From the NCBI GenBank assembly GCA_963693365.1, contig CAVNZM010000030.1:1-51195 (forward strand): DNA of 51,195 nt, read 5' to 3'. This document shows, piece by piece, positions 691-26,694 of this stretch; position 1 is the first letter of the stretch, and every line of letters starts with the position of its first letter. The position numbers were made by a program, and so were the translations under genes. Under the pieces are notes generated by a model. It worked only from the letters and a program-made list of their open reading frames with translations. It searched no databases and was not told the origin of the DNA. The DNA comes from Amoebidium appalachense. Its lineage: Eukaryota > Protista > Ichthyosporea.

Positions 691-716
691 AGGAGGGTAC
701 TTAGGACTTTTGAGAT
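691..716 (+). repeat. Left terminal inverted repeat (26 bp)
   Basis: AGGAGGGTACTTAGGACTTTTGAGAT, the exact reverse complement of 26669-26694. Preceded by TAAC. Confidence 0.92.
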
Positions 717-1549
717 TTGGGTGTTTTCTATGGAAATGCTCGGTTATCCCTTGTATATTTTGTAAAAATGTATATTGTATCTCTATTAGGCACACTAGGA
801 CCCAAACTAGGATGTGCATGGAATGCGACCCAAACATCTTTGGAAGCATCCAATTATATATTTATCAACGTTTTAACTGTTGGGTGTCCGTTTGCAAACA
901 GCGATATAAGTTCCTTCGACCACATAGCAAGCCACGATAGCACATTATCTTTCAGGTGAAGTATCACAGTTCTTGAGGGGTAGCAAACAAGCGACATGCT
1001 GGTTAATGAACGGAGCTGGGTACGGTAGTTCCACAACAGCAATTTGGAGTTTTGCAATTGTATGGGCATTGTTTAATGCACATTGTGAATAAAACATGAG
1101 ATAAGTCTTACACAATACATCCTTAAACAGGGTGCTTTACAAATTCCAGCTAACTGACCGACATGATGTTCACAACTATTACAGGCAAAGAAGCCCAATG
1201 TAACATAATAGAGCTGAAGAACGCTCTCAATCAGGCAGGCCATCCTGTGACTTTGGAAAGAGTTCAAAGGAGAAGTGGTATGAGCATCAGTCTACACGTG
1301 AAACATCACATACAATATACAAAGTAAAGGGTTATACAATACAACCTATCTAACTTACTATCACATCAATCACAACTTACCATCACATTCCAACGCTAAC
1401 CCATGAAGACAAACAAGGAAAGATTGCCTCCTCCACTTCGCTACCCATTCATTAATTCAAACAGTATGGTTCAAAAAAGTATATAGTGTGGTAGAGCATG
1501 CCTAAGGATCGGATTGAGGTTAAAGCTTTAAGATGTTGTGGTCACCGTG

Positions 1550-4500
1550 TCAGTCGGCGAGTCCGGAACCAGCTGGAACGGCTGACCGGGGGGTCCCAGA
1601 AGGAGGGGGTGACAGAAGGGAACCAGTTGGAGAAGGTGACCGGGGTGCCAGTGGTTCGGCAGTGACGGACGCACTGTTAGCCGCTGCCAACTCCTTCTCC
1701 AGTTCATCTTCCATCTCATCCTGCTCGGTAGTCGGCAACGGATTGACGTACACCATTGACCGTTTCCCTCCGATTCCTTTAGACCTCTTGCTTTGAGCGT
1801 CTCCACCATCGGATTCATCACTATCGCGCTTGCGGCCTTCCCAGAAGTCGATGATTCTTGCTTTGCTGGGACCCGACACAACTGGGCTGCTGTTCATGTT
1901 GCCCCAGGTGCCGTCGGTATTCATACTTCCGCATCCAAACAGCCAGCCGTCTGTCTCCGAATTTGCTGTCTTGAGAAGTTTCTCCTTCACGATTTCAGCT
2001 TCCATACTTGGCTCGGCCATACCAAGCTCCGTGGAATACAGGGGTAGCAGTTCTCGCCTTTTCTCGATGACCGCATGGTAGACCTGGCTGTGGATTTCGG
2101 CCACTGCCAACCGCTTTGTAATAGCTTCACACAATCGCTCCACGATCTCGAAGCCAACTACATGACGCCGTTCCATCGCGGCAGCCTCCATTACCGAACC
2201 CGTTCCAGCGCAAAGCGACAACACCGCTCTATTCGGCGGGCAGTGCCTACGTATGAGGGCGCGCTCGACGTTCACAGGTTTCTGAGGGAGATAAATCTAT
2301 AAGTGACAAGAGCGAGACACATACGTCCTAGTTGTCACTTGGGTGAGTCATCCTAGTGGCGATTAGTAGGACTTGATATAACAGAGGACCGGGATCCTAG
2401 TTGCCACTAGGATGATCAGGTCCAAGTTGTCTCTAGGGTTGGCAACTAGGATACTCGAATCCTAGTTGCGGCTAGGACTGAACCGTCCTAGTTGTCACTA
2501 GGATGACGTCATCCTAGATAGTACTAGGATGATATCATTATTTCGGATGAGTCTGTATATTTGCATCTGCATCCGTGTTTGTGTGGTATTGGTGGCTTGT
2601 GTGTTCGTGTGTGTGCGTCTGTTTTTTTGTGGGGGGGGGGAGCGAGGGGGTACTCATGATTTCAGCAAAATCGAAAACAAGTTTAGACTAACCATAGTGA
2701 ATAAGAGAGAGAGAGAGAGAGAGAGAGAGAGAGAGAGAGAGAGAGAGAGAGAGAGAGAGAGTGTGTGTGTGTGTGTGTGTGTGTGTGTGTGTGTGTGTGT
2801 GTGTGTGTGTGTGTATGTGTGTGTGTGTATGCCCGGGGGGGGGGGGGGGGGGTTGTGTGTTCGAGGGGTTGAGGGAGGTAGGGGATATTCCAGCAAATCG
2901 AAAGCAAGAGTAGGCTAGTAACGTTGAATGGGTGGATGGATGGAAGGGGCCGGTGTTAGATTTGGGGGCGAAGGCCTGAAGGTCTGAAGGATAAGGGAGA
3001 GGGGAGGGGGGGGAAGGCCTGAAGGCCTGAAGGCATAAGGGAGAGGGGGAGGGTGAAGACGAGGAAGGTGGTTTGGGAGGAGTGCATGTGCCCGTTTTAG
3101 TGGCCCTGTGTGTGGGCGTTTGGGTAGGCGGAGGAAGCTGGGGGGCTGGGGGGAGCCGAAGGAGGGGGAGGAGGGTGATTGGGATGTGCCAGTTACATTA
3201 GTCCTGTGTGTACTAGGCGTGTGGGTGGGGGGTGGGGGGTGGGGGGTGGGGTGGGGGTAATGAAAGGCTGAGAGGAAGAAACCACACCTGTTGGGGGCAG
3301 AGAATACCCTGATTAGCACCCTTCAGGTAGTCAAAACGCATCCTCCTCAAGCTATCGTTGTCCGGGTACCTTGGCTGTAGCAGAAGCCACGATTTATCCT
3401 CCTCTGCATCGGCGTAGTAGAACCCAGGGGGACGTGTGAACTTCTTGGCTTCAGTGATGTAACTGACAATGTAGATGTAGCCTGGTGCCGCAGGCTTTGT
3501 TAGGTGGGTGGTGGTGCTGCCCTTGGTCGGAGCATCATAGATGAAGGTGTCGTAGAGGTATTGCTGATCCATCAGCACCTTGCAGAGGGGCATTGTGGCC
3601 TGGTGGCCCGGGAACGAGGCAACAAGAACCCAGTCGCTGCAGTTGAACTGCTCGTTCAGTTGTGTTACTCTGTTGGAGTGGAATTGTGTGAGAGTACGAA
3701 CTGGTGCAAAATGCTTACAGAGGCCGTGGCTGTGAGCGTGCGTGTGTTGGAAAGCCAGGGGTGAAGAGGGTGGAAAGGGTGGAAAGGGTGGAGAGGGTGG
3801 AGGGGAGGGGGGGGGGGGGGGGGGGGTACAGGTCAGGAGATGGAGGTTACATGCCCCGCTTACTGCCAGTGGTTTAGGGTTCAATGACATACAGATACCA
3901 GGAAAATGTGCCCCCCCCCCCCCTCCCCCCCCCCCCCCCCAATCAATGATTGTGGGATGTGGGACCCACCACACCTGTGCACACGTACAGCTCATCATCG
4001 CCATTCCAACAGCATGCACACCCACCACGTTCAAACATGCCTGTAGCACCATCACCCACTCTCCTTGTACACCACCATCGCAAACCACTACCCAATTTTC
4101 ACTGCATGAACCCCCCATTCCGGATCCGCCGGCACCCATGCAAGATGGACCCAGCACACCGATGCACACACACACACGTGTGTGTGCGCGTGCGTGTGTT
4201 TGTGTGCGTGTGTGTGGTTAGATATGGGTGCATGAGCACGTGTACGTGTACGTGTGTGTTTGTGTGCGTGTGTGTGTGTGTCTGTGTTGTATTGTGTGTG
4301 TGTGACAGAGAGAGAGCATCCGTGTGTTTGCATGTGTGTGTGTTGTGGTGTGTTTGTGCTTGTGCTTGTGTTTGTGCTTGTGTTTGTGCTTGTGTTTGTG
4401 CGTGTGTGTGTGTGTGTGTGTGAGGGTGATAAGGAAAGGGAGGGGTGGGGAGGGAGAGGATGGCCAACTCTTTTCTATGTGCCAAACAGGGCCAGTGGTA

Positions 4501-26000: not shown

Positions 26001-26477
26001 CACACTTGGGACGACGCACAGAATACTCCCGGATCAGACTACTTGGGGGAATTTTGTGTGGCGAAAGTAATTCATATTGAAAATCCAGAGGCCCTACCGG
26101 CTGATAGAACTTTTTGGGTGCATTGGTGGTGTCCTGATGGTGTGGCTAGTGATCTGAGATATGACGCAAAACTGCAACCTATGTTTATTCACAAGGAAGA
26201 TCCTGCAAGGCAGACTTCCACTACCTTTCCAGTTTTGACTTGCACAGATAAAAGTTTTCAGGGGTTCTATAGGCCGAATGTACAGAAGGAGCAGTTAAAG
26301 GAATATGTTCAATGGATAGACCCTGTGAAATTCGAGAATATGTGTGGGACGATTTCTACCGGAAGTAGTTTTCTTGGAAAATCGGGTAAGGGTAACAGGT
26401 TCAATGTTGTAAAATCTCAATTAATGGCATTGCTCGAATTAAGCAAATCGGAGGTCAAGCGGGGTTTGGAAAAATAA
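17085..26477 (+). CDS. DDD/E transposase, DUF7869/Sola-like, ~1015 aa, with C-terminal Tudor/BAH-like beta domain
   Basis: Exons 17085-17680, 18005-18127, 18536-18626, 20251-20508, 23003-23244, 24740-26477 total 3048 nt and are phase consistent. The last intron is either GC-AG or an equivalent GT-AG shifted by 4 nt. Motifs: CRCNDNC, ICQEAF...[10 protein letters not shown]...[32 protein letters not shown]. Confidence 0.88.
24563..24692. repeat. Array of (T)CCTAG-N6-CTAGG(A) palindromes in the last intron of the transposase gene
   Basis: About 5 units, e.g. TCCTAGTACCAACTAGGA and TCCTAGTTGTAACTAGGA twice, with the same TGACGTCATC linker. Confidence 0.85.
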
Positions 26478-26668
26478 TAGTACTGAACAAAAGTAAGAAT
26501 CTTATCCATGTTTTAGCAAACACTTCTAAATTTTCGTAAAGTCTGATTGGTGTGAATGACGCATGGCTGTGCCAACCCATAATATTATAGCCTCAGGCAT
26601 TGCCGGCAACTTATTTTTGACCCAAAATTGCAAAAATAAAACGGCAGAAATCGCTGCACGTGTCCATT

Positions 26669-26694
26669 ATCTCAAAAGTCCTAAGTACCCTCCT
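26669..26694 (-). repeat. Right terminal inverted repeat (26 bp)
   Basis: ATCTCAAAAGTCCTAAGTACCCTCCT followed by TAAC, ~190 bp downstream of the transposase stop codon. Confidence 0.92.

Follow-up and report, generated by a model that had tools for sequence, protein, structure and literature searches.

A recently mobile, probably Sola1-type giant transposon of Amoebidium appalachense with a ParB-like and methyltransferase-like cargo gene

The ichthyosporean Amoebidium appalachense carries, in contig CAVNZM010000030.1 of assembly GCA_963693365.1, a 26,004-bp DNA transposon (positions 691 to 26694 of the 51,195-nucleotide stretch analyzed here, called the window) that has recently been mobile and is insertion-polymorphic. 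The transposon is likely autonomous and likely of the Sola1 type, and it encodes two genes: a DUF7869 transposase and a cargo protein that combines a ParB-like region with a methyltransferase-like C-terminal half. The reading of the whole that is put forward here, tentatively and with somewhat less than even confidence, is that the cargo of this transposon would act as a self-binding, element-coating factor that probably shields it from host 5-methylcytosine (5mC).

The element is delimited by terminal inverted repeats (TIRs) at 691–716 (+ strand) and 26669–26694 (− strand), which are identical at 26/26 bases as reverse complements and diverge beyond, and by a TAAC target-site duplication (TSD) at 687–690 and 26695–26698; no further TIR-like match with up to five substitutions occurs elsewhere in the window. 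The perfect repeats, the 4-bp TSD and the unit length are as described in the original prediction, which a model had made from the letters alone. A chance origin of the TIRs and TSD and an assembly artefact were both considered as explanations and rejected. The coding share is 7,293 bp, introns with abundant (CA)n and poly-C making up most of the remainder, and the two head-to-head genes are separated by a divergent intergenic gap of 1,469 bp.

Mobility is documented by contigs from public sequencing runs. The left end is covered in 4/4 runs compared, and three contigs (two from run X3 and one from X7) depart exactly at 691 into unrelated flanks; at the right end, contigs of X3 and X1 switch exactly at 26694 to two other flanking sequences, and contigs of X7 and X12 end at 26694 and 26696, respectively. 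An X12 contig passes from the left flank through a single TAAC into the sequence to the right of the transposon, representing an empty site; it differs from this locus at 12 of 146 bases, so that it is a paralogue or an allele of the target. Contigs that switch to other flanks at the TIRs, together with the empty site, show that the transposon has moved recently, in agreement with the cut-and-paste mobility originally proposed. X1 and X3 represent one sample, X7 and X12 are possibly related to the source of this DNA, and the window locus, the only site seen with both flanks, is the one that provides paired TSDs. For another insertion site, a single X3 DNA contig unites 402 bases of unrelated flank with the TIR and the last cargo exon. 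Copies differ in detail, the X3 copy having an 11-bp insertion at window position 2439, inside a palindrome array discussed below. In X3 and X12, contig depth over the transposon is roughly 10 times as great as over the flank, but depth is not copy number and was not used as evidence. The left flank (window 300–690) is repetitive in its own right, and variant contigs of it are numerous in 4/4 runs.

The transposase gene (17085–26477, + strand) encodes 1,050 residues in seven exons (17085–17680, 18005–18127, 18536–18626, 20251–20508, 22086–22190, 23003–23244 and 24740–26477), a model that draws on a transcript protein, Pfam and RNase-H model matches; two of its six introns, those after exons 5 and 6, have GC donors. 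Pfam assigns the last exon to DUF7869 (E 7e-34). A homolog search found nine proteins among 5,562 candidates, with the top cluster coming from the EukProt transcriptome of Amoebidium parasiticum, and one relative from a Logan contig (P0002) is 57% identical; among 18 viral contigs, no transposase relatives were found. Since the 1,050-residue A. parasiticum transcript protein P0010 agrees with the seven-exon model at every residue except 108 when GC donors are allowed, the gene is spliced as predicted. Residues D498, D579, E617, D618 and D620 are invariant in 9/9 aligned proteins, and the structural model, with a mean predicted local distance difference test score (pLDDT) of 49.6 and about 70–85 in the core, matches the RNase-H transposases IstA (E 2e-5), TnsB and Mos1. 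The protein is an RNase-H-fold transposase with an acidic triad, as the original call of a DDD/E transposase had it, and the element belongs to the TIR-bearing cut-and-paste class.

Assignment to Sola1 is likely, as far as the sequence goes. Sola1 elements require a 4-bp TSD, which TAAC provides at the one site with both flanks, and the transposase motifs D.MDQ, Q.DN and GHTHEDID presumably resemble those of Sola1. The 4-mers adjoining the ends are TAAC, CTGT, ATAG and CCTG, a tiny sample in which none is AWWT or AWDT, the target preference described as a hallmark of Sola1 (PMC3845634); the targets of Ectocarpus Sola1-1 are described, in the available text, only as “biased towards ending in A” (PMC12477816).

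The cargo gene (1550–15615, − strand) encodes 1,379 residues in 15 exons (15615–14885, 13608–13456, 13224–13084, 12436–12311, 11581–11353, 11018–10833, 9860–9702, 9105–8894, 8052–7881, 7028–6822, 6633–6520, 5815–5453, 5305–5136, 3729–3288 and 2284–1550), based on the open frame, GT-AG introns throughout, the exon 14–15 junction and a 4,686-nt contig; exon 13 is needed to keep the frame. The last acceptor is fixed at 2284 by an X7 contig in which exon 14 runs directly into that position; this is the one junction of 14 shown directly by a contig, the other 13 coming from the gene model. The 4,686-nt contig, from run X16, covers 1096–2284, and its remaining 3,498 nt, compared with the 3,405 nt of coding exons 1–14, leave a surplus consistent with a short 5′ untranslated region (UTR). 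Both genes are spliced and transcribed, as shown by the contig joints and the EukProt transcript, no matching run being recorded as RNA; the gene models, contig joint and transcript protein bear out the two head-to-head, open, spliced genes of the original prediction.

The C-terminal half of the cargo resembles beta-class amino-methyltransferases (PF01555). Its last exon opens with QKP...VLSLCAGTGS, corresponding to the C-terminal half of these enzymes, and contains the S-adenosylmethionine (SAM)-binding motif I region (LCAGTGS, 2195–2215, − strand), identified through Pfam, PHROG, NCBIfam, phmmer and PDB matches; the usual SAM motif of PF01555 enzymes is F-x-G-x-G, where the cargo reads LCAGTG. 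Scanned alone, this exon reaches 25.6 bits against Pfam N6_N4_Mtase (E 1.4e-5; cut-off 26.7) and matches a PHROG DNA methyltransferase with E 6e-10, and the C-terminal half of the protein matches a PDB methyltransferase with E 7e-5. Of 1.84 billion proteins, 46 matched the C-terminal part in a phmmer search (best E 1.8e-7), without any near-identical sequence among them; the variant VLS[LMV]C.GTG is found in five of the 46, and DPPF in the four of these that are long enough. The best matches to the C-terminal motifs include an amino-methyltransferase family (P0016, P0017, P0018, P0031 and P0035) with VLS[LMV]CNGTG and, in four members, DPPF, whose sequences stem from contigs of Logan and ENA.

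The putative catalytic motif IV reads DPPA (residues 956–959; 5222–5233, − strand), the sole DPP in the protein. In a 21-row MAFFT alignment it falls on the DPP[YFW] of 20 relatives, its spacing to QKP is 180 residues, compared with 173 and 186 in the transposon-linked relatives L068 and L051 described below, and it lies N-terminal to motif I by about 200 residues, which is the beta-class order. In this order, and in the QKP followed by a SAM loop, the cargo is like phage methyltransferases of ParB–terminase loci and the bdelloid N4CMT; unlike PF01555 enzymes, which have the catalytic motif [DNSH]PP[YFW], it has DPPA, and it is transposon-borne and intron-rich, whereas N4CMT, a host gene, has SPPY together with a chromodomain. 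In motif IV it is the final aromatic residue that stacks against the target base (PMC4738411); since DPPA lacks it, methylase activity is doubtful, and the methylase-like part has probably lost most of its catalytic activity. The original description of a protein of about 1360 residues with ParB-like and beta-class methyltransferase parts holds for the methyltransferase-like part in its beta order, and needs amending in its length, in the methyltransferase match, which is confined to the C-terminal part, and in the ParB similarity, which is weak.

Relatives of this arrangement are present in metagenomes. A scan with the transposase matched 597 stretches, 479 of which were confirmed, and the best 80 loci were taken; cargo counts rest on the 20 loci in which 3 kb or more of sequence precedes the catalytic motif. 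ParB-like and/or methyltransferase-like genes stand beside the DUF7869 transposase in six of these 20, in five distinct families, so that the linkage the original prediction had suggested seeking in other genomes exists. L013 has a ParB-like gene followed by a methyltransferase with DPPY, head-to-head with the transposase. L068 and the near-identical L058 have an OTU protease and a ParB-like part, also head-to-head, and in L068 a 1,191-residue open frame (711–4283, − strand) unites both with a beta-class methyltransferase (DPPW). ParB-like cargo likewise stands head-to-head with the transposase in L048 (PHROG ParB family, E 8e-5; a SET-like tail by eye) and L074, and in L051 (2360–5743, + strand) a gene with PF01555 (above the cut-off) and SET lies on the same strand as, and upstream of, the transposase. 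The PF01555 and SET pair of L051 is also the domain pair of red-algal PAG2, and the stretch between the L051 genes contains an 82-bp inverted repeat.

The 60 shorter loci gave no credible cargo-profile match (one 61-residue open reading frame (ORF) in L031, E 0.05). The link between cargo and transposase is recurrent but not universal, because an apparently complete DUF7869 element of about 8.7–8.8 kb with 30-bp terminal inverted repeats (L079:25–8737) lacks such cargo. Two accessory ORFs of other kinds are present in L079, one of them resembling Ulp1 by eye, and a Pfam Ulp1 ORF lies upstream in L069. In a tree of 88 transposase cores, the cargo carriers are unclustered (79 of 500 shuffles were as low), most contigs being too short to show cargo.

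The host gives a transposon a motive for self-protection. Amoebidium methylates recent transposable element (TE) insertions most heavily and silences with 5mC (PMC11244446), and N6-methyladenine (6mA) marks active 5′ gene regions (PMC12695648); together, these provide a motive for either anti-silencing route, a protective coat or an activating mark. That the cargo is an active 6mA or N4-methylcytosine (4mC) writer that marks its own element, for example with the active-chromatin mark 6mA, is nevertheless unlikely. The well-preserved SAM-binding motif I and QKP, the intact D-P-P of motif IV, the DPPY and DPPW of DUF7869-linked L013 and L068, and the raised 6mA that correlates with retrotransposon-borne Dam enzymes (bioRxiv 10.64898/2026.05.21.726589) would all suit such a writer, but the fourth residue of motif IV is Ala rather than Tyr, Phe or Trp, about 40 additional residues separate the GD motif from DPP, and the bdelloid N4CMT is inactive after an SPPY-to-APPA change (PMC8885841), which is indicative only, as two residues were changed.

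The ParB-like part of the cargo is assigned by a profile of four relatives, whose best match covers residues 453–584 over 118 columns (ParB/Srx-like region, exons 5–8, 9080–11375, − strand) and is ParB-like by motif order; this region is predicted to adopt a ParB fold. Its signature reads GGQHT (9789–9803) in place of the DGxHR type, the D, G, H and R of which are invariant in the four aligned relatives, and it is followed by a putative helix-turn-helix-like stretch. Among the exons scanned singly with Pfam, PHROG and NCBIfam, none matched ParB. Profile A3 reached SbnI and sulfiredoxin among PDB sequences only at E 0.9–1.9, a ParB-like relative gave only E 0.5 matches in phages by tblastn, and a four-row model of the L068 ParB region (pLDDT 40, no fold match) was too poor to use. 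Elsewhere in the protein, exon 14 matched none of 31 longer candidate proteins, alignment A2 matched none of 7,987 longer proteins and none of 64 viral contigs, and Atlas searches gave a best value of 0.83 and no family for exon 14, and no usable match for exon 1. A BAH-like look of exon 1 was not supported by Pfam, PHROGs, NCBIfam or Atlas and was rejected.

The transposon contains candidate binding sites for such a region, absent from the original prediction, in the form of an 18-bp palindrome, TCCTAGT-N4-ACTAGGA, which with up to three mismatches occurs 16 times in the window against 1.58 expected, a count reached by 0/100 shuffles. By motif count, 14 of the 16 lie within the transposon: seven in the last cargo intron (2326–2529), two degenerate copies with two and three mismatches in the intergenic region (16262–16568) and five in the last transposase intron (24571–24689), the two large arrays being 1.6–1.8 kb and 2.0–2.1 kb from the transposon ends. 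Under a rule of at least four copies in at least two clusters, applied to all 80 metagenomic loci, palindromes were found in 3/6 cargo loci and 3/74 others; a stricter first rule gave 2/6 and 2/74, and was loosened after L013 had been seen. The cargo loci concerned are L013 (nine copies), L048 (five) and L074 (four), compared with at most two copies in 20 shuffles each. Each element has a different palindrome, and the layout in L048 (cargo interruption, intergenic region and transposase interruption) is like that of the Amoebidium element. At L018 (63–1179), close to a DUF7869 transposase, a spaced palindrome is repeated seven or eight times; this contig is not long enough to reveal any cargo.

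It is also improbable that the cargo is a decaying passenger, with the palindromes being transposase sites or unrelated small-repeat remnants. Decay would explain why both signature motifs are off-norm and why no near cargo relative exists in the protein collections searched, but the frame of 15 exons and 1,379 codons is open and spliced, five distinct metagenomic families, as well as Ectocarpus, share the linkage of cargo to transposase, and the X16 copy of the last exon shows two coding differences (one synonymous) against three substitutions and one deletion in the 3′ UTR, numbers too small for a selection test. Least probable is that ParB-like clamps, at large arrays placed symmetrically about 2 kb inside the ends, aid transposition by compacting the 26-kb element or pairing its ends: 26-bp TIRs are short for such a unit, and loading on palindromes with subsequent spreading is established for bacterial ParB, but L079 appears complete without such cargo, the palindromes also occupy the promoter gap, which suits transcriptional control, and the methyltransferase-like half would be left unexplained.

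The self-binding reading thus takes the following form: the ParB-like part of the cargo would load on the transposon's own 18-bp palindromes, the cargo would coat the transposon rather than methylate it, the coat would shield the element from host 5mC silencing, and the methylase-like part would be mostly non-catalytic. In its simplest form, such a mechanism would have a ParB-like protein recognize a parS-like site within its own element and deliver a chromatin-acting domain to it. From the sequence, the cargo probably binds the palindromes, and we infer the binding, the loss of catalysis through DPPA and the anti-silencing purpose. Binding and coating are likelier than methylation because both signature motifs are altered in this copy; the “epigenetic writer” of the original prediction is weakened by the same two features, the DPPA without an aromatic residue and the GGQHT of the ParB-like region.

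Several observations weigh against this reading. Motif IV is assigned by forced alignment and spacing, the profile score of this half is not above shuffles (pairwise against four relatives, 21, 451, 21 and 164 of 500 shuffles are equally high, which is marginal or null), the best local profile match instead places residues 899–947 at motifs VI–VIII, and the relatives retain DPPY, DPPW or DPPF. For residues 453–584, 2/300 shuffles scored higher and the hhalign probability is 0.7%, and a first, two-sequence ParB profile found no match in the cargo protein. Among the 20 long loci, dispersed palindromes occur in 3/6 with cargo and 1/14 others, a difference short of significance (Fisher p 0.06); no such palindrome accompanies the cargo of L068/L058 and L051; and the Amoebidium arrays, lying about 2 kb inside either end, could instead be transposase sites.

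A wider proposal, about which we are more doubtful, is that giant eukaryotic DUF7869/Sola1-like transposons carry a complete ParB–parS-like module, in which a ParB-like protein would be paired with an element-specific palindrome in the cargo intron, promoter and transposase intron and with a swappable effector (amino-methyltransferase, SET or OTU), and which in Amoebidium would form a non-catalytic coat that keeps the 26-kb element transcribed and mobile despite 5mC.

The original prediction had considered the combination of genes undescribed, but this does not hold. Ectocarpus Sola1-1_Ec32 (21,549 bp, 4-bp TSD) carries on the opposite strand a gene for a 1,104-residue ParB-like and N4mC/N6mA methyltransferase protein, for which self-binding and self-modification have been proposed and which has been called a possible new class of accessory protein (PMC12477816, 2025, which cites Iyer 2011 and the Bostrychia genome paper, bioRxiv 10.1101/2025.02.11.637652). 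The two elements share the giant size, the 4-bp TSD, the two-gene plan and the fusion of ParB-like and methyltransferase parts; that of the brown alga differs in its 282-bp imperfect TIRs and AACCG ends, compared with 26-bp perfect TIRs and AGGAG ends in Amoebidium, and the available part of its description, on which rather than on sequence the comparison is based, mentions neither an internal palindrome array nor a degenerate motif IV. In red algae, the Bostrychia genome paper describes accessory genes of PF01555 with SET and of ParB with 2-oxoglutarate (2OG) oxygenase and adjacent inverted-repeat arrays, with self-binding again proposed (bioRxiv 10.1101/2025.02.11.637652). These Plavaka (EnSpm) elements with PAG2 and PAG3 are likewise giant DNA transposons that combine a PF01555 methylase with a ParB-like protein and have inverted-repeat arrays by the ParB gene, but their transposase is of EnSpm type and methylase–SET and ParB–2OG oxygenase are separate genes, whereas the Amoebidium cargo is one protein. 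Plant VANDAL/VANC anti-silencing is a functional analogue, in which an accessory protein acts on its own element; the transposon and protein families are different, and no homology is claimed. The available text of the preprint on TE-borne Dam enzymes concerns retrotransposons and mentions neither ParB nor PF01555 (bioRxiv 10.64898/2026.05.21.726589).

A status of the transposon as categorically new was accordingly rejected. What is new is the ichthyosporean host, the occurrence of such cargo beside six of 20 long metagenomic DUF7869 loci, and the parS-like palindrome in three places: in the literature covered, which includes the Amoebidium genome paper and its two text supplements, with Repbase entries, bioRxiv supplements and subscription papers outside coverage, neither the element in ichthyosporeans nor the three-place layout is reported.

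The brown- and red-algal papers proposed self-binding or self-modification and, in their available parts, contain no test of the proposal. The Amoebidium element offers a test case, as it is intact, transcribed, insertion-polymorphic and equipped with a candidate 18-bp site, in a cultured animal relative in which 5mC of transposable elements has been mapped, and the 1,191-residue open frame of L068 would be easy to express for biochemistry. That the gene pairing extends to ichthyosporeans and to several environmental lineages, in which the additional domains vary (SET, OTU), suggests that a modular toolkit for anti-silencing or self-handling is widespread, and that amino-methylases of bacterial type have in it one means of spreading in eukaryotes.

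The window contains other repeats to the right of the transposon. A Gypsy-type long terminal repeat retrotransposon at 39871–47088 has a gag-like ORF, protease, reverse transcriptase, RNase H, integrase and chromodomain, with its pol split across two frames near 45050, and is surrounded by arrays of a 183–186-bp satellite at 32479–34392 (10.4 copies), 38855–39274 (2.3 copies) and 47762–50300 (13.9 copies). Another reverse transcriptase fragment, resembling by eye a long interspersed nuclear element, lies at 37083–37640 (− strand; Pfam RVT_1, E 1e-15).

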